DNA of 50,837 nucleotides from Promethearchaeota archaeon (GCA_048938855.1 JBHLLT010000008.1:61971-112807); one strand, 5' to 3'. Positions 2,669-36,722 are shown, numbered from the stretch's first letter. Program-made: numbers and translations. Notes: generated from the letters alone by a model not told the origin.

Positions 2669-4603
2669 ATGTCTCATCCCAAGCTAAACCAACTAACAAG
2701 AGCGGAAGAACTTTTTGATGAAGGTGAGCTTGAGAAGGCTCTTGAAATATTAAACGATCGGAGTCAATTTAAGGGGCTAGATGCTCAACAAAAAATCTAT
2801 TATCAGTACCTTAAGGGCTTAATTCTATTGTATCAACATAAAACCGAAGAAGCTATTAAGTTCGGTGAACAATTATTTAAAGAAGGGCAAAATCTTAATG
2901 ACAATCTCCAATCATTTGATGGATTATTTTTTATTATCAATGGATCATGTTTAGCTAATAAATTCGATGATGCATTCAAAAAAATTGAAGAAGCTGAAGA
3001 ATTATTAAAAATTATTTCTAGTGAACCTAAGAATGAGTTAATTTTAAGAGAGATTCGTTTAAATTTGCTAAAAGCATGGATAAATATGAGTTTTGGTAAT
3101 ATTGATATAGCAGAAAAGTATTTTGAAGAGATCCTAAGTAAAAAAAAAGAACTTGGTAATACTTTTGAAATCGTTTGGGCTTATAGTCTAATGATACAAA
3201 ATATGCTTTGGGTAAAAGGTAGACCTGATCTTGCTATGAAATACAATAAAAAATTATTATTACAAGCAAAGGAAATTAAATTTAACCACTACTGGATTGC
3301 TATTTATCATGGTTATAAGGGGGTAATATATCAAGCTATTGGAGAGCTAGATAAAAGCTTGAAGCATTATTTAACTTGTAAAAGATTAATTAAAGAATTA
3401 CAAAGTGATTTTCTGAATGCTCCTATATTTAATAATATTGGGAATGTTTATTGTGAAAAGGGAGAATATGACCTTGCTTTGAAATATTTGGAAGAAAGTT
3501 TATTATTTCATAAAGCCCAATATAAAGTGCTTCACCCAGGCTATCTTTGTAGTATAATCTCTATAGCTCTTAAAAAAGGTGATATTGATTATGCTCAAAA
3601 ATATTTTCAACGCCTAGAAAATATATATAATCAAACACCGGATAGTTATATCAAATTACTTTACCAATACAATAAAGCTTTAATATTGAAAACCAGCTCT
3701 CGAATACGAGACAAAGCAAAAGCTGAGAAATTATTAAAACAAGTTATCAAAAAAGGAGGTTTTGAATTTCTTCAATTAAGTGATGCTTATATTCATCTTT
3801 GTGACTTACTCCTTGCGGAATATCGTACTTATAATTATGATGAAGTTCTTGAAGAACTTAATCAAAATATTGCTCAATTATTAACTATTGCTGAAAATTC
3901 ACATTCTTATCGTGTTTTTTGTGAAACTTTTGTATTAAAATCCAAATTAGCTTTATTAACTTTTGATATGAAAGCAGCTCGAAGATACTTAACTCAAGCT
4001 CAGAAAATTGCGGAATCTTATGGCCTAAAACGATTAGCAATGAAAATCTCAATTGAACATGATAATTTACTAAAAGAATTAGATAAGTGGGAAAATTTAA
4101 ATGAATCAAAAGCAAGTCTGACGGAGCGTATTAAATTGGCCCGATTAGATGATCAGATGACAGTAATGCTAAAAAAACGGTCATTGAAAGTTCCAGAGAT
4201 ATCAAATGAAGACCCTGTTATGCTATTAATCTTAACCGAGGGTGGGATTCTTTTATTCTCTAAAAAATTTATCGAGGATTTTTCATTTGAAGATGATATC
4301 TTAGGAGGTTTTCTAACTGCGATAAATTATTTTATTAGTGAGGTATTTTCTGAAGGTCTTGATAGAGCGGTTTTCGGTCATTATACACTTCTTATGATGC
4401 CTCTTCAACCATTTTTGATATGCTATATCTTTAAAGGGGCTTCGTATTTTGCTCAACATAAGATAAAAACTTTTGTTACTTCATTAAAGAATGACAATAT
4501 TACTTGGCAATCTTTACAGAAATTTTTCCAAAAGAGTAAATCAGTTCAATTAAACGATATTCCATCGCTTGAATCATTAATTACAGAGATTTTTTTAGAA
4601 TAA
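2669..4603 (+). CDS. TPR-repeat protein with C-terminal longin-like domain
   Basis: TPR motifs (FNNIGNVYCEKGEYDLALKYLEESL). C-terminal domain nearly identical to that of 1..1641. Confidence 0.85.
   Translation: MSHPKLNQLTRAEELFDEGELEKALEILNDRSQFKGLDAQQKIYYQYLKGLILLYQHKTEEAIKFGEQLFKEGQNLNDNLQSFDGLFFIINGSCLANKFDDAFKKIEEAEELLKIISSEPKNELILREIRLNLLKAWINMSFGNIDIAEKYFEEILSKKKELGNTFEIVWAYSLMIQNMLWVKGRPDLAMKYNKKLLLQAKEIKFNHYWIAIYHGYKGVIYQAIGELDKSLKHYLTCKRLIKELQSDFLNAPIFNNIGNVYCEKGEYDLALKYLEESLLFHKAQYKVLHPGYLCSIISIALKKGDIDYAQKYFQRLENIYNQTPDSYIKLLYQYNKALILKTSSRIRDKAKAEKLLKQVIKKGGFEFLQLSDAYIHLCDLLLAEYRTYNYDEVLEELNQNIAQLLTIAENSHSYRVFCETFVLKSKLALLTFDMKAARRYLTQAQKIAESYGLKRLAMKISIEHDNLLKELDKWENLNESKASLTERIKLARLDDQMTVMLKKRSLKVPEISNEDPVMLLILTEGGILLFSKKFIEDFSFEDDILGGFLTAINYFISEVFSEGLDRAVFGHYTLLMMPLQPFLICYIFKGASYFAQHKIKTFVTSLKNDNITWQSLQKFFQKSKSVQLNDIPSLESLITEIFLE
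4188..4575 (+). repeat. High-identity paralogous segment (copy 2)
   Basis: Matches 1217-1604; many differences are at third codon positions. Confidence 0.8.
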
Positions 4604-26231: not shown

Positions 26232-26539
26232 TTAACATCCTAAATAATAAAAAATCAATTTTTTTTTATTCTTTAATTTTATAACAATAACTAAGAATGA
26301 TCGCTCTTTTCTATAATTCCTAGCTGTTTTTCGAATTATCTTATTCTGTGATAATCAAAAAGATAAATTTTTTCTATCATCAATAATCATAATTCTAAAT
26401 TTCGCTTACATTGATAAATAGTAACAAATAAAAATATTAAAAACGAATAAAACCTAAAAGATAAAATATTAATTGACGTAATAAATTAAAGAATTCTACA
26501 ATCTTGTATAAAAAATTAGAGGTTGATGTGATAAAAGGA

Positions 26540-28483
26540 ATGGAAAAACAAACTCATCGGATTGGTTACTATGCATGTCAGTGAGGTATAAACATCCGAA
26601 GTAAGGTTGATTGTGATGAGCTCGTAGAGTATGCTAAAAATGAATTCCCTGATGAAATTGTTATATCAAAGAAAAATGCTTTTCTATGAACTGATAATGC
26701 TCAAAATGAGATCATAAAAGATATACAAGAGAAAAATCTTAACAGAATTGTCGCATCAGCTTGAACACCGCGCACACACGAAGTGATCTATAGAGGAACA
26801 ATAGCTAAAACTGACTTAAATCCATATTATTTTCAGATGGTAAATGTCCGTGAACATTGTTCTTGGTGTACAGATAATAAAGAAGAAGCAACAGAAAAGG
26901 CAAAAACCTTAGTGAAGAGTGGTATCGAGAGAGCAAAATTATTGGAGCCAGTTCCTATTAAAACTGTCCCTGTCACTAAAGCTACATTAATTGTCGGTGG
27001 TGGTATTGCAGGTATGAATGCTGCACTTGATCTTGCAAATCAAGGTATTAAAGTATACCTTGTGGAGCATAAGACAACTATTGGAGGTAGAATGGCCCAA
27101 CTTGATCGAACTTTTCCAACTGATGATTGTGCTATATGAATCTGTGGACCTAAAATGCTTGAAGTTAATAGAAATGAGAACATAGAATTACTTACTTATA
27201 GCGAAGTAAAAAAAGTAGAAGGTTATGTCGGCAATTACAAGGTTACAATTGAAAAGAAACCAAGATATACAACTGAAGAATGTAATGGCTGTGGAGCTTG
27301 TGCTGAAGTCTGCCCTGTTTTCACATCGAATTATTTCGATGAAAATTTAGGCGCAAGAAAGGCAATCGATATATCATTTGGTCAAGCAGTTCCATTCTTG
27401 TATGATGTCGATAGAAATGCATGTATTGAATGTTATTCGTGTGTAGATGCATGTGAATTAGATGCGATTGATTTTAGCCAAGTTCCAAAAGACGAGAATA
27501 TTGAAGTTGGCACAATAATTATAGCAACAGGTTGGGATATTTATGAACCTTATGGTGAATATGGATACGGAGAATTTGAAAATGTAATAACTCAATCACA
27601 GTTGGAACGTATGTTGGCTCCTAATGGTCCACTTGAAGGGCATGTACACAGAATTTCAGATGATAAAAAGCCAAAAGAAATAGTGTTTATCCAGTGTGTT
27701 GGCAGTAGAGAAACGGAAAGAACTTATTGCAGCGGCGTATGCTGTATGTTGGCTCTGAAAAATGGAAGATTGTTAAAAGAAGAATTTCCAGATGCCAATA
27801 TAACAATATGTTACATAGATATAAGAACAAATGAAAAAGGTTTTGAAGAGTATTTTCAACGTGCTAAAGACTTTGATATTAGATTGATTCGCGGTAAAGT
27901 GGGCGAGATTTCTGAAGATCCCGAAACTAAAGATATAAATCTTCGTGTTTATTCGTCCTTAACAGATGAAATAATAAAGATCGACGCAGATTTAATCGTT
28001 CTTTCCACAGCAGCTCTCCCATCAAAGGGTACTCATGAAATTTCTCAAGTGTTAAATCTTGATACAAATACATATGGATTCCTTACAGAATCGCACTTCG
28101 GTTTAATGCCACAAGAAACTAAAACTAAGGGAATTTTTATTGCTGGATTTGCTCAAGGACCAAAAAATATCTCCTATTCGGTCTCTCAAGCAAGAGCCGC
28201 AGCAAGTAAAGTGGCAGAATTGACATCTCCTGGAGTGGTAGATATAGAATTAATTACAGCTGAAGTTAACAGCGCATTTTGTATATCCTGCAGAAGATGT
28301 GAAAAAGAATGTCCAAAAAATGCAATTAAAATCGATGAAGCGATTGGTGCGTTTATTGATGAAATAAATTGTGATGGATGTGGAATTTGTGCTTCTTGTT
28401 GTCCTACTCAAGCAATTGATATTAGATATTATCGAGATCACCAATTATTTGCTGAAATTGATGGGCTTTTAGGAGGTGGTTAG
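26540..28483 (+). CDS. hdrA: Heterodisulfide reductase subunit A, selenoprotein with 4 Sec (647 aa)
   Basis: One frame from ATG 26540 (or GTG 26528) to TAG 28481-83, with TGA at 26582 (ACQUGINI), 26687 (AFLUTD), 26762 (SAUTPRTHE) and 27137 (DDCAIUICGPKM). It joins the track ORFs at 26783 and 27155. GGGIAG FAD motif, ferredoxin motifs, QCVGSR, YCSGVCC. Confidence 0.95.
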
Positions 28484-28487
28484 AGAA

Positions 28488-28943
28488 ATGGAAAACAACA
28501 TTAGTTTAATAGTATTTGCATGTATGAAGTGAGGATATAGTGCGGCTGATTTAGCAGGGGTTTCAAGATTAAAGTATACATCCTCGGTAAAAATAGTAAA
28601 AGTGAGGTGCACTGGAAGGATTGATCTAAAGCACATCCTATATAGCATCATTTCTGGGGCTGATGGTGTTATGATTGTTGGATGACGACCTAATGAATGC
28701 CAATTCAAGAATGGAAACTTTACAGCTCAACGACACGTCGAATTAGCGAATAGAATATTAGACTCTCGAGGATTTGGAAATCAAAGAGTTAATATGTATT
28801 GGTTAAGTGGAGCAGAATCAGAGAAGTTTGTTAAGAGTGTAGAAGATGCATATGATAAAGTAAAAAGAGCTGGTCCAAACCCCATTAAAGCTATGGATGT
28901 TAAATTACCAGAAAAAGACTTACTAATTACCCCTATTGAATGA
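28488..28943 (+). CDS. mvhD: MvhD/VhuD [2Fe-2S] subunit, selenoprotein with 2 Sec (151 aa); absent from ORF track
   Basis: MENNISLIVFACMKUGYSAADLAGVSR..VRCTGRID..GADGVMIVGURPNECQF..GPNP, with TGA at 28530 and 28683. Ends at TGA 28941-43 (next in-frame TAA 28950-52). Confidence 0.95.
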
Positions 28944-28996
28944 ATCTTATAAAAAAATTTTTGTTATAAGAGGACTAACCTCGCAAAGGGAGGGGT
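28929..28996 (+). promoter_or_regulatory. Eukaryote-like SECIS element candidate
   Basis: AUGAA(28940-44), 8-bp stem UCUUAUAA(28945-52)/UUAUAAGA(28964-71), extendable by 2-3 A-U pairs with apical As, then GGAC(28972-75) giving tandem GA/AG. Lower helix ACCCCU(28929-34)/AGGGGU(28991-96). Confidence 0.75.
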
Positions 28997-29059
28997 TCTT
29001 AAAAAATTATAAAAAAGTATCAGATTTTTGAAATAGTATAAAGAAGAAATGAAAGATAT

Positions 29060-30562
29060 ATGGTTCAAATTGTAAATAACAAATTATTTTCAAATATATC
29101 CCCAAAATCTTTAATGGAAGCTACTTATGAAGCTTCAGGAAACTTCCAAATCAGAGCATTTTTTGAAGCAAAGGATGAAATTCTAAAAGCAAATAAATAT
29201 TCTGAAGTTGAGTTTTATGAGATATTAGATGCTATGATCGATGCTGAAACAGAGCGTAAACTGGTATTAGAGAAGTTAAAAGGTAAAAAACCATTATTTT
29301 TAGAAGAGATGGTAAAAATAGTAAAGGAATTTCCCTCAGACAATGTAATTAGAGATATAATTTACCTAAAGGAACAAGGTTATATTGAGGAACATATTGA
29401 AATTAAAACTAAAAAGGTAATTAAAAAAATCAAGGGAGAAGAAAAAGAAGTCGAAGAAGAAGAACGCTTTTTTAGGTATCAAGTAAAAAAACTCCCTGAT
29501 GATTTTATGGAACACTTTTTTGAACCTGTTTCTCTTGTATTCACCTCTGGTGTATGCTGTCAATGTGGTTGGTGTTCTTCAATTTGCCCTGTAAATGCTA
29601 TTGTTGTAACTGCGGATACTTTAGAGATCGATGATAAAATTTGTATGAAGTGTGGATTATGCTATTCAGTTTGTCCTCGTTCATTCTCAATTGAACAATT
29701 TTTACTGAGTAGGTCAAAGCTTAATAAATCCTTAAATTTCTCGGATAAAATCAATGGATATCTAAGTACTCATTCTGCATCAACCACTAGTGATAAGATT
29801 AAAAAAGTACGACAAGATGGAGGTATTGTTACTTCTTTACTCGAATATTTATTAAAGAATAAATTAGTCGATGCTGTAATAGCAGTTCAACATTCAAAGG
29901 AAATGTGGAAACCGGAACCAGTTATAGTAGAAAATGTAAAGGATTTATATAAAACTGGGGGAACTAAGTATGCAAATGCATCAACTCTAAATATGATAGA
30001 TAAAATGAAGCAGTACGAGAATATTGCAGTTGTTGGTGTTCCTTGTATGATGAATGCTCTAGAAAAAGGCAGGTTATTTCCAAGTGGAAGACCTTTTTTT
30101 AATAATATTAAATATCGAATAGGTCTTTTTTGCATGGAATCCTTTTCTTATGATAATGTACGTAAATTAATTAAAGAACAATTTGATAAAGATTACACAA
30201 AAATAACAAAAATGGATATTAGTGGGGGTAAGTTCATTATATATTTAGATTCGGGTGAGGATTTAAGAGTACCTTTAAAAGATGTGAAATCTTTTGCCCG
30301 CCATAACTGTCATTTTTGTGAAGATTTAACAGCAGATTGTGCTGATATTTCTGTAGGTTCAATCGGTTCACCTGGTGGTTGGTCAACAGTGATAATCCGA
30401 ACTAACTTAGGTGAAAAACTTTTCAAAGATGCAATTAAAAAAGGATTGATTGAATCTAAAAACCTCTCTGAAGTTAAGCCAGGTCAATCATTACTAGAAC
30501 GAATCGCACGATCAAAGAGGAAAGATTGTAAACCAATCAAATTAGATATAAAACAGGATTGA
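29060..30562 (+). CDS. FrhB/FdhB-family protein with N-terminal helical/wHTH-like extension
   Basis: CCQCGWCSSICP, CMKCGLCYSVCP, QDGGIVT, VGVPC, IGLFCME, CHFCED, ADISVGSIGS. Confidence 0.9.
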   Translation: MVQIVNNKLFSNISPKSLMEATYEASGNFQIRAFFEAKDEILKANKYSEVEFYEILDAMIDAETERKLVLEKLKGKKPLFLEEMVKIVKEFPSDNVIRDIIYLKEQGYIEEHIEIKTKKVIKKIKGEEKEVEEEERFFRYQVKKLPDDFMEHFFEPVSLVFTSGVCCQCGWCSSICPVNAIVVTADTLEIDDKICMKCGLCYSVCPRSFSIEQFLLSRSKLNKSLNFSDKINGYLSTHSASTTSDKIKKVRQDGGIVTSLLEYLLKNKLVDAVIAVQHSKEMWKPEPVIVENVKDLYKTGGTKYANASTLNMIDKMKQYENIAVVGVPCMMNALEKGRLFPSGRPFFNNIKYRIGLFCMESFSYDNVRKLIKEQFDKDYTKITKMDISGGKFIIYLDSGEDLRVPLKDVKSFARHNCHFCEDLTADCADISVGSIGSPGGWSTVIIRTNLGEKLFKDAIKKGLIESKNLSEVKPGQSLLERIARSKRKDCKPIKLDIKQD

Positions 30563-31890: not shown

Positions 31891-33171
31891 GTGATAACAA
31901 TTACAGAAACAGAAAAAATGAAAACATCTGGAAAAAAGAAGGATGAAAATAGTGCTTATCTAGAAAAGATTTATAACTCGAATTTACGTGATATGTTAAA
32001 GCGTTGTTATCAGTGTGCTCGCTGCTCAGGAATATGTCAATTAAGTAAAGTTCAGACATTTACTCCAAGTCGAATTATACAATTGATATTAGAAGGTTTT
32101 GAAGATAAAGTTATTGAAAGTGGAATATTATGGGATTGTTTAACTTGTAATGCATGCCTTCAAAATTGCCCTGAGGGAATAAATTTTGCAGATATTGTAA
32201 GAATGGCAAAATATAAAATGCGAGAATCCTATAATCAAAATCCAGATGAATATATTGCCCATAAAGGTGTGTATACTACTATTTCAGAAATTATGAGTGA
32301 ATCTCATATAAATCCGGAAAGATCACTGGATTGGGTTCCTAAAGGATGTGAAATTTCAACACACGGTAATATAATGTATTATGTTGGATGCTTGCCCTAT
32401 TTTAATTTTGAGTTTGAAAATTCAAATTCTATAGCAGAAAGTACGTTAAAAATACTCTGTCAAATTGAAAAAGAATCAATCGTGGTTCTTCAAGACGAAA
32501 TTTGTTGTGGACATGATCTCTATTGGGGACAGGGAAAACTTAATGAATTCATAAATTTGGGAAAAAGGAATATAAAAAGAATTGAAGAGACTGGGGTAAA
32601 AACGATAATTACAGCTTGCGCAGAATGTTATAGAACCCTTAAAGTAGATTACCCTAGTATCTTTGAAGATTTTAAGGAAAAATTTGTGGTTAAACATCTG
32701 ATCGAATACATTTATGAAAACTGGAAATCTCACAAGATTGAATTTAAGAATCCGTCTCAAAAAGAAGAACTCATCCCTTTTACCTATCATGATCCATGTC
32801 GTTTAAGTAGATTTTTACCTAAAGATAGTAATATTATTGAAAATGTACGTGAGATTTTCTCTCATTTAAAAGAAATTGGATATAAATTTAACGAAATGGC
32901 ACACAATAAAACTGATGCTTTGTGCTGTGGAGTAAGTTCATGGATGAATTGTAATGATCGTTCAAAAGCATTGCGTTACAAAAGATTATTGGAAGCAAAA
33001 GACGCAGGTGAGATAATGGTCACTTCTTGTCCTAAATGTAAAATGCATTTATCTTGTTTGCAGAATGATTATGAAGATATATCCTCAATTGAAATAGTGG
33101 ATTTTTCTGAATTTTTGGTGAATTTAATAAAAATTGTTGATTCTAACCAAAAAGTGGAGGGAGAAAAGTAA
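31891..33171 (+). CDS. HdrD-like Fe-S oxidoreductase (HdrC-type ferredoxin plus two CCG domains)
   Basis: CYQCARCSGIC, WDCLTCNACLQNCP, YYVGC, EICCG, TACAEC, YHDPC, LCCG, TSCPKC. Confidence 0.9.
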   Translation: MITITETEKMKTSGKKKDENSAYLEKIYNSNLRDMLKRCYQCARCSGICQLSKVQTFTPSRIIQLILEGFEDKVIESGILWDCLTCNACLQNCPEGINFADIVRMAKYKMRESYNQNPDEYIAHKGVYTTISEIMSESHINPERSLDWVPKGCEISTHGNIMYYVGCLPYFNFEFENSNSIAESTLKILCQIEKESIVVLQDEICCGHDLYWGQGKLNEFINLGKRNIKRIEETGVKTIITACAECYRTLKVDYPSIFEDFKEKFVVKHLIEYIYENWKSHKIEFKNPSQKEELIPFTYHDPCRLSRFLPKDSNIIENVREIFSHLKEIGYKFNEMAHNKTDALCCGVSSWMNCNDRSKALRYKRLLEAKDAGEIMVTSCPKCKMHLSCLQNDYEDISSIEIVDFSEFLVNLIKIVDSNQKVEGEK

Positions 33172-36100
33172 TGGAAGGGTCAGTATTAGTAATTGGTGGA
33201 GGGATAGCAGGAATTCAAATTTCCCTTGATCTCACCGAATTAGGATTCAAAGTGTATTTAGTAGAAAAATCTCCTTCTATTGGAGGAAGAATGTCTCAAT
33301 TAGATAAAACATTTCCAACATTAGATTGTTCTTTATGTATCTTGGCTCCTAAGATGGTAGAGGTGTTTAGAAATCCCAACATAGAATTAATGACTTACCA
33401 TGAAGTTCTTAATATTAGTGGTAAACCGGGCAATTTTACCGCAAAAATCTTAAAGAAACCTCGGTATATTGATGAGACCAAATGTAAGGGTTGTGGAGAA
33501 TGTAGTAATAAATGTCCTAAAATTCTTGCTCCAAATCCTTTTGAAATGAATATTGGCAAAAGAAAATCAGTTTATATCCCTTTTCCTCAAGCAGTACCTC
33601 CCATTTATTTAATTGATTCAGAAATGTGCCTTTATTTAAAGAAAGGAGTATGTCAAGTATGTAAAAAAGTTTGTCCTGCTGATGCTATAGATTTTGAGCA
33701 GCAACCAGAAGAATTTAATATTAAAGTTGGAGCAGTAGTGGTTGCAACAGGTTTTCAAATGCCTGCTGAAGAATTATCGTCAAGATGGGGATATAGATTT
33801 GAAAACGTTATAAGTGCGCTTGAATATGAAAGGATATTATGTGCATCTGGACCATTTGGAGGTCATGTTATGAGATTAAGTGATGAGAAGGAACCTGAAG
33901 TGATTGCATTTGTTCAATGTGCAGGTTCGAGAGATCTTCATGAAAATGTACCTTTTTGTTCAAGTGTATGTTGCACATATACTGCAAAACAGGCAATTAT
34001 TACACAAGAACATTCAAAAAATTCAAAATGTTACATATTTCGACATGATATTCGTGCTTATGGAAAGAATTTTTATGAATTTACGCAAAGAGCTCAGGAT
34101 GAATATGGTGTAAAATATTTTCAATCCAAAATAAGTAAAATTGAAGAAGATCCTGAAACGCAGGATTTATTCATACATTATGAAGATTTAAAAACTGGAG
34201 AATTTAAAGATTTCCGAGCAAATTTGGTAGTTTTAGCATCACCATTGGTTCCCTCAAAAGGAGTTCAAGAATTATCGAATTCTTTAGGAATTGAGTTGGA
34301 TAAATATAACTTCTTTCAAGAAAAATCTTATTTTGATAAATTAAAATCCTCTAAAGATGGAATTTATTTATGTGGATTTTGTCAAGGTCCAATGGACATC
34401 CCAGAAACAGTTGCAAATGCTAGTGGAGTAGCAGCTGAGATTGCTGATTTATTAAATTCCGTGAAATATACACAAATGAAAGAAAAAACTGTGGATGTAC
34501 CTGAAAAAGAAGTAAAAATAACAGATGAGCCTAGAATTGGAGTAATGGTCTGCCATTGTGGAATAAATATAGGAAATTATGTGGATGTACCAAGAGTTGT
34601 AGAATATGTTAGCAAATTACCAAATGTAGTAGTATGCGAAGCTAATCTATACTCATGTTCTTCTGATTCTCAAATTAGGATTAAACAATTAATTGCTGAA
34701 CATAATTTAAATCGATTTATTGTAGCATCATGCACACCTAGAACTCATGAATCATTATTCCAAGAAACTTGCCAAGAAGCAGGAATGAATAAATATCTAT
34801 TTGAACTTGTAAATATTCGAGATCAATGCTCATGGGTTCATATGACAGAAAAAGAAGCAGCTACCAAAAAAGCGATGGATTTAATCCGTATGAATATTGC
34901 TAAATCAAAATTATTAAAACCACAGAAAGAAGATAAGATTGACATTACCCATTCAGCATTAGTTATCGGTGGAGGTGTTTCAGGTATGACTGCCGCATTA
35001 AATACAGCTAATCAAGGATTTAGTACTATTCTTGTTGAAAAAGAAAGTGAATTAGGTGGGAACCTAAAATTCTTGAATATATTATATCCAGTTCATAAAA
35101 ATGCTTTAGAATTATTAAATGAATTAAAACAGAAGATTGAGAAAAATAGCAATATTCAAGTATTCTTAAATGCGGGAATTAAAAATGTTAAAGGTTATGT
35201 TGGAAATTATGATGTAGCAATTAATGATTCAGATAATAAAATCCATGATGTAAAGATTGGGACAATAATTGTTGCTACAGGAGGGCAAGAATATAAACCA
35301 GTTAACCTTTTTGAATATAGTGATAAAAATGATAACGTTATGACTCAATTAGAGTTAGAACAGAAATTAAAAAATAAAGGCCATTCATGGTTAGATAAAA
35401 TAAAGCGAGTTACCTTCATTTTGTGCGTAAATGCGAGACAAAATGAAGGAATAACTTATTGTTCAAATATTTGCTGTGCAATCTCGATGAAAAATGTTAG
35501 AATTCTAAAAGAATTGAAACCGGAATTAGAAATTGTTGTAATTTATAGAGATTTACAAATGGCTAAGAAAGAATTCGAGGAATATTATCGTGAGCGACGA
35601 AAAGATGCGATATTCCTTAGATACGACCTGGATAACCTCCCAGAAGTAATAAAGTCAAATAATTCTCCCGAAAACTATCAGATTAAAGTATTTGATACAA
35701 ACCTTAAAGACTATATTAATTATGAAACAGATTTGTTAATATTAGCAACGCCTATGATTCCTGCTGATAATTTAAAGGAATTGGCTATGATGTTAAAGGT
35801 CCCATTAGATAAAAATGGGTTTTTCTTAGAAGCGCATGTTAAATTGCGACCTTTAGATTTTGCTACAGATGGTATTTTCTTATGTGGGTGTGCTCAATGG
35901 CCAAAGAACATTCAAGATTCAGTTGCACAGGCTAATGGTGCTGCAGGTAGAGCAAGTAGATTCCTTAGTGCTGAAAAAATAACTACATCAGGGTTAGTAG
36001 CTGAAGTTTTAGAAGAGAAATGCATTGGTTGTGGAAAATGTGAAGATGTATGTCCCTATAAAGCAATCACACTTTTAGAAATATCCAAGGATTTTGAAGA

Positions 36101-36278
36101 CATAAGTATTAAAGTCAAGAAGTCTAATATTAATGCAGCTGTATGCAAAGGTTGTGGAACTTGTGCTGCGACATGCCCTGTCGGTGCTATTATGGTAAAA
36201 CATTATGATTTTGATCAAATTTCTACGATGATTGATTCTTATTTATTAGAAAAGGAGGAAGTTAAGAACGGTTTTTAG
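33171..36278 (+). CDS. hdrA: Large HdrA-like flavoprotein with two FAD modules, all-Cys
   Basis: GGGIAG and GGGVSG; FPTLDCSLCILAPKM; internal RIGVMVCHCGINI, YSCS, ASCTPRTHE; C-terminal ferredoxin motifs. Confidence 0.92.
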   Translation: MEGSVLVIGGGIAGIQISLDLTELGFKVYLVEKSPSIGGRMSQLDKTFPTLDCSLCILAPKMVEVFRNPNIELMTYHEVLNISGKPGNFTAKILKKPRYIDETKCKGCGECSNKCPKILAPNPFEMNIGKRKSVYIPFPQAVPPIYLIDSEMCLYLKKGVCQVCKKVCPADAIDFEQQPEEFNIKVGAVVVATGFQMPAEELSSRWGYRFENVISALEYERILCASGPFGGHVMRLSDEKEPEVIAFVQCAGSRDLHENVPFCSSVCCTYTAKQAIITQEHSKNSKCYIFRHDIRAYGKNFYEFTQRAQDEYGVKYFQSKISKIEEDPETQDLFIHYEDLKTGEFKDFRANLVVLASPLVPSKGVQELSNSLGIELDKYNFFQEKSYFDKLKSSKDGIYLCGFCQGPMDIPETVANASGVAAEIADLLNSVKYTQMKEKTVDVPEKEVKITDEPRIGVMVCHCGINIGNYVDVPRVVEYVSKLPNVVVCEANLYSCSSDSQIRIKQLIAEHNLNRFIVASCTPRTHESLFQETCQEAGMNKYLFELVNIRDQCSWVHMTEKEAATKKAMDLIRMNIAKSKLLKPQKEDKIDITHSALVIGGGVSGMTAALNTANQGFSTILVEKESELGGNLKFLNILYPVHKNALELLNELKQKIEKNSNIQVFLNAGIKNVKGYVGNYDVAINDSDNKIHDVKIGTIIVATGGQEYKPVNLFEYSDKNDNVMTQLELEQKLKNKGHSWLDKIKRVTFILCVNARQNEGITYCSNICCAISMKNVRILKELKPELEIVVIYRDLQMAKKEFEEYYRERRKDAIFLRYDLDNLPEVIKSNNSPENYQIKVFDTNLKDYINYETDLLILATPMIPADNLKELAMMLKVPLDKNGFFLEAHVKLRPLDFATDGIFLCGCAQWPKNIQDSVAQANGAAGRASRFLSAEKITTSGLVAEVLEEKCIGCGKCEDVCPYKAITLLEISKDFEDISIKVKKSNINAAVCKGCGTCAATCPVGAIMVKHYDFDQISTMIDSYLLEKEEVKNGF

Positions 36279-36287
36279 GTGAATATC

Positions 36288-36722
36288 ATGTCAAAGGCCA
36301 AAGAGAAAGCAAAAGAAAAAGATTTTAAACCAAATATTTTAGTATTTTGCTGTAATTGGTGTAGTTATGCTGGAGCAGATTTAGCGGGAGTTTCTCGATT
36401 TCAATATCCCCCAAATATTAGAATTATAAGAGTTATGTGTTCTGGGAGAGTAGATCCCTCATTTATTTTGAAAGCTTTTAAAAATGGTGCTGATGGTGTA
36501 CTAATAAGCGGATGCCATATTGGGGATTGTCATTATATAACTGGAAATGAATATACTCAGAAAAGATTCGAAAGATTACATAATATTTTAATAAAGCAAA
36601 TGGGAATCAATCCAAAAAGATTAAGATTAGAATGGGTAAGTGCTTCCGAAGGCAAGAGATTTGCTGAAGTAATAACAGAATTTACCAACCAAATTAAAGA
36701 ATTAGGCCCCTTCAATTATTAA
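36288..36722 (+). CDS. mvhD: MvhD [2Fe-2S] subunit, all-Cys
   Basis: FCCNWCSYAGADLAG, RVMCSGRVD, GADGV..GCHIGDCHY, WVSASEG; AGGTGA SD 5 nt before the ATG. Confidence 0.95.
   Translation: MSKAKEKAKEKDFKPNILVFCCNWCSYAGADLAGVSRFQYPPNIRIIRVMCSGRVDPSFILKAFKNGADGVLISGCHIGDCHYITGNEYTQKRFERLHNILIKQMGINPKRLRLEWVSASEGKRFAEVITEFTNQIKELGPFNY

Follow-up and report, generated by a model that had tools for sequence, protein, structure and literature searches.

The DNA analysed here, which we call the window, is a stretch of 50,837 nucleotides from a Promethearchaeota archaeon (GCA_048938855.1 JBHLLT010000008.1:61971-112807). We focused on a gene on its + strand, hdrA (26540-28483), whose predicted product belongs to the HdrA family, the core of flavin-based electron bifurcation, and whose frame contains four TGA codons that would encode selenocysteine (Sec, U). 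Immediately downstream are vhuD, with two further in-frame TGAs, and a putative selenocysteine insertion sequence (SECIS) element.

The hdrA frame and its TGA codons

When TGA was translated as U, positions 26540-28483 formed a single frame of 647 codons with exactly four TGAs, no internal TAA or TAG and no frameshift, ending at a TAG (28481-28483). Stops are abundant on the opposite strand. Standard open reading frame (ORF) calling splits the gene into pieces of 118 and 442 codons, the second beginning at 27155. An earlier reading made from the sequence alone (the sequence-only reading) had placed in-frame TGAs at codons 15, 50, 75 and 200 and expected standard annotation to fragment the gene; both claims held.

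Judged by its sequence, the product is a full-length, standard electron-bifurcating HdrA of the five-domain type (type I). Searched against solved HdrA proteins with phmmer, the translation matched M. maripaludis 9sfi_A with an E-value of 5.5e-198 and 5odc_A with 4.6e-193, with residues 6-645 covered, and it aligned end to end with 9sfi_A (M. maripaludis), 5odc_A (M. thermolithotrophicus), 8rvu (M. marburgensis) and 7bkb (M. hungatei). Pfam placed Pyr_redox_2, NAD_binding_8 and FAD_oxidored, all Rossmann families that bind FAD (flavin adenine dinucleotide) or NAD(P), at residues 149-240, and Fer4 families at 244-306 and 574-631, which correspond to two pairs of 4Fe-4S ferredoxin motifs. The conserved ferredoxin cysteines are residues 248/251/254/258, 295/298/301/305, 581/584/587/591 and 611/614/617/621. 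The dinucleotide-binding glycines G153, G155 and G158 and the cysteines of the HA4 [4Fe-4S] cluster (C386, C397, C401 and C402) are invariant in the HdrA alignment. An AlphaFold2 model built from an alignment of 27 orthologs and paralogs had a pLDDT of 84.7, and Foldseek gave TM-scores of 0.70-0.74 to 8rvu, 5odc and 7bkb over 646-664 columns.

The four TGAs fall on cysteine positions of the family. Codon 15 (26582-26584, +) lies in a CxU motif (ACQUG) just after strand beta1 and corresponds to Cys13 in 5odc numbering; codon 50 (26687-26689, +), in the motif FLUT, lies in the loop after beta2 and corresponds to Cys46; and codon 75 (26762-26764, +), in SAUTPRTHE, directly follows beta3 and corresponds to Cys71. 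Codon 200 (27137-27139, +), in DDCAIU(I), is the canonical HdrA Sec site, equivalent to Cys197 of 5odc, Cys205 of M. marburgensis and Sec197 of M. maripaludis. The alignment with solved HdrA proteins thus supports the placement of three Sec in the N-terminal Fe-S domain and of the fourth at the canonical DCxxU site, as the sequence-only reading had it. In five solved HdrA structures all four columns are Cys, the one exception being column 200 of 9sfi_A, which is X (Sec). HdrA columns 13, 15, 50, 75, 197 and 200 read C, U, U, U, C and U in the window's copy. Of the 647 columns roughly 33 are Cys, and the chance that four of four stops would fall on them is about (33/647)^4 = 7e-6; the recurrence of these TGAs among 80 orthologs (below) puts the observation beyond doubt.

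Paralogs within the genome gave the same picture, with Cys or Sec at the TGA columns in eight full-length HdrA copies. Five hdrA copies are of the Sec type: the window's, with four TGAs, and four others with a pair of TGAs that invariably stands at columns 15 and 200. In three full-length copies of the Cys type these two columns are Cys, and the column of codon 75 is Cys in all HdrA paralogs of the genome. The neighbouring paralog, a fused HdrA of 1035 residues at 33171-36278, contains all four Cys counterparts quoted in the sequence-only reading: CHCG (residue 461), YSCS (494), ASCTPRTHE (519) and DCSLCI (52). A 644-residue ORF at 2669-4603 was also considered as the neighbouring paralog and proved unrelated.

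For comparison between species, one genome per species was scanned, which yielded 80 orthologous loci in metagenome-assembled genomes (MAGs) of Promethearchaeota, at 75-91% identity. TGA is kept at codon 15 in 77/77, at codon 75 in 78/78 and at codon 200 in 80/80 of the orthologs that cover each position, and codon 50 is TGA in 54, TGT in 17 and TGC in 7. The alternation of TGA with Cys codons for which the sequence-only reading proposed to search Asgard genomes is seen at codon 50 (54 TGA versus 24 TGT or TGC), the other three positions being TGA throughout. On an ortholog tree built with the four TGA columns masked, Sec50 and Cys50 were exchanged at least 5 and up to 9 times. With the window's copy included, the census of orthologous copies comprises 55 with four Sec, 24 with three Sec and a few with a fifth.

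Between the window's gene and its orthologs, synonymous divergence (pS) is saturated, at 0.73-0.81 from codon 16 onward and 0.55 in the short segment of codons 1-14. Nonsynonymous divergence (pN) is 0.09-0.17 in codons 16-49, 51-74, 76-199 and 201-647, and 0.23 in codons 1-14. Because every segment between the TGAs shows purifying selection, we conclude that the entire frame is translated. The two fragments returned by ORF calling would also be expected of a pseudogene, of an assembly error, or of a locus that expresses just the 442-codon ORF from 27155, an HdrA lacking its N-terminal domain, and contamination of the assembly, a MAG, is estimated at 7%. However, the frame is free of frameshifts, TAA and TAG, 80 species-level genomes that were each assembled independently have the same TGAs, and both codons 16-199 and codons 201-647 combine little amino-acid change with saturated synonymous divergence. 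We regard the probability of any of these explanations as practically negligible.

The orthologs also bear on the start of the gene, which we assign to the ATG at 26540. An alternative GTG start at 26528 was rejected: in most orthologs an in-frame TAA follows a conserved GAGGTG box and stands just upstream of the ATG, which supports the ATG. A conserved GAGGTGGATGTG box is found at 26518-26530 of the window, 10-20 nt 5' of the hdrA start, and recurs in most orthologs, among them the loci L034-L063. This box may have a regulatory role or resemble a Shine-Dalgarno sequence.

A separate observation concerns additional TGAs in a few orthologs. Four (L109, L081, L086 and L051) have a fifth hdrA TGA, and L111 has one extra in a three-Sec background. 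The extra TGAs are at columns 298, 301 or 614, which are Cys of classical CxxCxxCxxxC ferredoxin motifs (giving CVEU, CFSU and CDGU), and those at 301 and at 614 each occur in two separate, distant branches of the ortholog tree. Since five orthologs carry TGA at 298, 301 or 614, Sec at Fe-S ligand sites recurs in the HdrA family. A five-Sec HdrA has one Sec more than the maximum given by Mariotti et al., 2016 (PMC4989117), and these additional Sec would occupy undisputed [4Fe-4S] ligand positions.

A shared SECIS element and the decoding of UGA

The vhuD gene (mvhD; FlpD family, Pfam FlpD E-value 4.8e-41) occupies 28488-28943 on the + strand, starts 4 nt after the hdrA stop and has 151 codons, with TGAs at codon 15 (28530-28532, +) and codon 66 (28683-28685, +). 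Its in-frame stop is the UGA of the SECIS core, and a back-up TAA is present at 28950-28952. The element itself (28926-29001, +) is type I and resembles a eukaryotic SECIS (eSECIS-like), with the layout published for lokiSECIS. It consists of an ATGA core (28940-28943), a 9-position stem (28944-28952 with 28964-28972) whose first position is an A/G mismatch, an 11-nt apical loop beginning AAAAA, a 3' GA (28973-28974) and a lower helix (28929-28934 with 28991-28996).

Of 78 orthologous loci, 75 have the lokiSECIS 430-480 nt 3' of the end of hdrA, with the same hdrA-vhuD layout. In a 76-sequence alignment of the element, ATGA and the AAA of the loop are invariant and eight of the nine upper-stem pairs show compensatory changes; none of 500 shuffles, and no slid register, reached the observed values. 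A covariance model derived from this alignment scored 89.6 bits at 28926-29001, with the next + strand match in the window at 13.9 bits, and thus detected no second SECIS on the + strand of the window and none between hdrA and vhuD. The six UGAs of hdrA and vhuD lie 257 to 2358 nt upstream of the lokiSECIS, and because the window's + strand holds no other element, this single SECIS must serve all six. An Rfam scan of the window at the gathering threshold returned nothing, the element not being recognised by Rfam models, and folding of 28920-29010 as a single sequence was not significant (z -0.89), the structure being evident only in the comparative test.

We then have to ask how the UGAs are decoded. 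Within the genome we found a tRNA-Sec (61 bits; called by ARAGORN as tRNA-SeC with anticodon TCA) adjoined by a SepSecS gene (464 bits), a SelB-like gene 5 kb from the tRNA (232 bits), a PSTK-like gene (133 bits) and two SelD genes (183 and 168 bits), which stand in tandem at G000:C34:253707-255755 (-) and each contain one in-frame TGA. The components that the sequence-only reading had named as those to look for are therefore all present, PSTK and SelB as '-like' genes. The selD genes gave no match to the SECIS model of the hdrA/vhuD type, in agreement with the distinct SelD SECIS type described in the literature. Within the window, TGA is the ordinary stop of 4/37 long ORFs, which argues that UGA has not been reassigned.

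These data also address the possibility that the UGAs are not read as Sec: the Sec machinery might insert Cys when selenium is short, near-cognate read-through might occur, or UGA might be reassigned across the lineage. UGA occurs only where Cys would work, and with Cys at codon 50 in 24 orthologs a Cys product would probably be functional. Reassignment is nevertheless at odds with the ordinary TGA stops, and the genome encodes tRNA-SeC(TCA), SepSecS, SelD and a SelB-like factor, with a conserved, covarying SECIS downstream of the genes. Moreover, TGA has long been kept at three sites although TGT and TGC are one step away, which argues that Sec itself is selected. We consider non-Sec decoding very improbable, and on genomic grounds the four hdrA UGAs are almost certainly read as selenocysteine.

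Some points weigh against this reading. The scores of the PSTK-like and SelB-like genes are below the NCBIfam curated cut-offs, which is expected of divergent Asgard versions, yet is no proof. The 94.7% of paired cells in the SECIS alignment is inflated, the hairpins having been pre-selected for at least 7/8 pairs. Neither hdrB nor hdrC adjoins the four-Sec hdrA. Finally, Sec insertion at the hdrA UGAs is something we infer from genomics. Taking all of this together, we put at about 0.9 the probability that the window's hdrA is a functional gene, from an Asgard archaeon of the Loki type (Promethearchaeota), with its four internal UGAs translated as Sec and served, together with vhuD, by one SECIS. 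Most likely hdrA and the two-Sec vhuD would share one mRNA, on which the lokiSECIS after vhuD, 1.8-2.4 kb from the hdrA UGAs, would bring a Sec-specific elongation factor and its Sec-tRNA(Sec) to each of the six UGAs.

The SECIS covariance model also matched behind three other Sec-type hdrA copies of the genome. At one two-Sec copy the element (G000:C77:2602-2678, -) directly follows hdrA, with no vhuD between them. For the two-Sec hdrA at G000:C62:93751-95742 (-) there was no match to the model within 1.5 kb, and this copy may use a variant element. Five further matches in the genome, at 47-57 bits (C47: 35 bits), including G000:C70:123312-124997 (-), C66:27670-27745 (-) and C47:26694-26775 (+), presumably mark other selenoprotein genes.

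Selenocysteines and the N-terminal cluster

HdrA's N-terminal domain holds the [4Fe-4S] 'shuttle' cluster HA3, on the low-potential branch that runs from FAD to HA3, then to HA5/HA6 and on to ferredoxin, and Sec200 is the second residue of the CxxC/U pair beside the bifurcating FAD. Across the solved structures, paralogs and orthologs, the only invariant Cys/Sec columns of the N-terminal domain are 13, 15, 50 and 75. In the AlphaFold2 model these columns are found at the C-terminal ends of beta1, beta2 and beta3, and the C-terminal strand ends are the usual cofactor site of a Rossmann-like sheet. In HdrA, the N-terminal Fe-S cluster has been described as bound by Cys of the N-terminal domain together with Cys197 of the other HdrA subunit (PMC9012536).

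Two arrangements of HA3 could follow from this. In the first, which follows the crystal form, three N-terminal positions and the partner subunit's Sec200 bind the cluster; in the second, its ligands are the four N-terminal positions. As three of the four N-terminal positions are Sec, any set of three includes at least two Sec, which with Sec200' makes at least three of four ligands Sec; if all four N-terminal positions are ligands, three of the four are likewise Sec. From the sequence and the model we therefore lean towards, and think somewhat probable, an HA3 with at least three selenolates among its four ligands. We give even odds to the more specific arrangement in which HA3 is held by three or even four selenolates, namely Sec15, Sec50 and Sec75, plus Sec200 of the docked partner. 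Selenium at HA3 might tune or speed the low-potential electron hand-off.

Published views weigh against a selenium-ligated HA3. Mariotti et al., 2016 (PMC4989117), writing before structures were available, held that the HdrA Sec positions are not cluster ligands. In recent cryo-EM studies the Cys202/Cys205 pair (197/200 in the window's protein) is described as holding an unknown ligand (PMC13580544) or as a Cys-Sec197 bridge (PMC13518236), in neither case as a fixed ligand of HA3. For the ligand assignment of HA3 we found in the literature only the general statement in PMC9012536 and these newer cryo-EM views, and our search found no paper that maps the Loki Sec sites onto HdrA structures. Homology between the HdrA N-terminal domain and MvhD/FlpD, sought in order to transfer ligand assignments, gave no Pfam match and a BLASTP E-value of 8.3. 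The largely selenium-ligated cluster proposed in the sequence-only reading stands as a reasonable suggestion, given PMC9012536, the topology of the model and Sec at three of the four N-terminal Cys positions.

Alternatively, instead of ligating Fe-S clusters, the N-terminal Sec could act as redox-active selenols. Pairs such as Sec15 and Sec200', or Sec15 and Cys13, would then form selenenylsulfide or diselenide relays that carry electrons between FAD, the [2Fe-2S] cluster of MvhD and HA3; the gene would still be a genuine four-Sec hdrA. Catalytic, non-ligand roles were proposed by Mariotti et al., 2016 (PMC4989117), and the density for the Cys-Sec197 bridge led to the proposal of a thiol-selenol shuttle (PMC13518236). 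A preprint on class II benzoyl-CoA reductase (BCRII) shows a Cys59-Cys62 disulfide state and a Sec next to the cluster in the MvhD-like BamF. Furthermore, Sec15 and Sec200 co-occur in all five Sec-type HdrA copies of the genome, which fits a functional pair. However, the N-terminal domain must bind a [4Fe-4S] cluster, and of its invariant positions just four are of the Cys type, three of them being Sec. At most one of these positions can be a non-ligand if Cys197' ligates, and none otherwise (PMC9012536), and a pure model with no Sec ligand is hard to reconcile with this limit. We therefore judge the relay in its pure form rather unlikely, although a mixed model, in which one Sec, most plausibly Sec15 with Sec200, serves as a relay and the remaining Sec are ligands, is a live alternative.

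Should the selenium-ligated HA3 be correct, it would be an almost all-selenium-ligated natural Fe-S cluster, of a kind not yet characterised in any enzyme, and it would overturn the 2016 statement that the Sec of HdrA are not cluster ligands.

Gene neighbourhood, known systems and significance

Directly downstream of hdrA, vhuD and the SECIS is an frhB/fdhB-like gene (29060-30562, +) that encodes a ferredoxin domain and FrhB_FdhB_N/C (Pfam). It is found at this place in 76 of the 80 orthologous loci, and its conservation suggests that electron input or output would be of a flavin/F420 type and not through a hydrogenase. Farther downstream come a second FrhB-like gene and then three genes that cover 31891-36722 and encode a CCG protein resembling HdrD, the fused HdrA with Cys only, and an MvhD of the Cys type. 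The CCG-domain gene nearest to the four-Sec hdrA (31891-33171) thus stands beside the all-Cys fused paralog. In this fused double HdrA of 1035 residues the DCSLCI pair is in the first TrxR unit and a Cys set like that of the N-terminal domain is mid-protein, a complementary arrangement as in the fused HdrA of anaerobic methanotrophic archaea (ANME) and Moorella (PMC9012536) and in BamDEF of benzoyl-CoA reductase.

The four-Sec HdrA class was already published in 2016, and the locus described here is a new copy of it. Mariotti et al., 2016 (PMC4989117) reported that HdrA of Lokiarchaeota has up to four Sec, always including the canonical one near position 200, and that vhuD always lies directly downstream and is followed by a single lokiSECIS, which may serve six UGAs across about 2 kb. 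They also noted that Loki HdrA never ends in UGA and that the AUGA core can double as a stop (VhuU.1). The description of multi-Sec HdrA and VhuD in Loki was later extended to 227 Asgard genomes (PMC11227280). The window's locus shares with the published tandem the canonical Sec near position 200, vhuD on the same strand after a tiny gap (4 nt), a TAG-ended hdrA, and a single SECIS (AUGA core doubling as a stop, 9-position stem, 11-nt loop beginning AAAAA) for six UGAs over ~2.4 kb. We see no essential difference, and the window holds another genome's copy, in keeping with the statement in the sequence-only reading that the class is not new. What we add to the 2016 description is the ortholog census, the conserved FrhB-like neighbour and the mapping of the Sec sites onto HdrA structures solved after 2017; our sole departure from it concerns its pre-structure remark that the Sec are not cluster ligands.

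Other HdrA systems are more distant. The Methanococcales HdrA(u) (M. maripaludis Sec197, 9sfi; PMC13518236) has the same five domains, a Sec in DDCxxU and a two-Sec VhuD partner. However, its Sec is at 197 only, its SECIS is of the archaeal type, and it works with HdrBC, Vhu hydrogenase and Fwd, whereas the window's HdrA has three extra N-terminal Sec, and its gene shares a eukaryote-like SECIS with vhuD and neighbours an FrhB-like gene, with neither hydrogenase nor hdrBC genes alongside. The Cys-type HdrA proteins of the HdrABC-MvhAGD, Elp-Hdr and Fdh-Hdr-Fmd complexes (5odc, 8rvu, 7bkb) agree with it in domain order, Fe-S and FAD motifs and fold, but have Cys at all six special positions where the window's HdrA has Sec at four. 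BamE/BamF of class II benzoyl-CoA reductase (bioRxiv 10.64898/2026.04.10.717634) likewise pair a bifurcating module of the HdrA type with an MvhD-like adaptor in which a Sec stands beside the [2Fe-2S] cluster, and there the Cys pair meets E3, the equivalent of HA3. In contrast to the window's protein, they are bacterial, their HdrA is a fused double one and only the adaptor contains Sec, and they are closer to the all-Cys hdrD-like, fused hdrA and mvhD genes at 31891-36722 than to the four-Sec hdrA.

Because annotation pipelines split such genes, reconstructions of Asgard energy metabolism undercount HdrA; the same splitting problem has been noted in methanogens (PMC12054007). Six UGAs that depend on one SECIS up to 2.4 kb away would represent an extreme of recoding. 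The four Sec sites would provide built-in selenium labels for extended X-ray absorption fine structure (EXAFS), anomalous diffraction and 77Se spectroscopy, and the natural Sec/Cys series at position 50 enables comparison. Structural papers of 2025-2026 explicitly call the electron path that links flavin, Cys/Sec pair and mobile shuttle cluster unresolved. As gene finding, our result is a confirmation and a modest one, while a shuttle cluster ligated by selenium would be a genuinely interesting biochemical question for the HdrA family.

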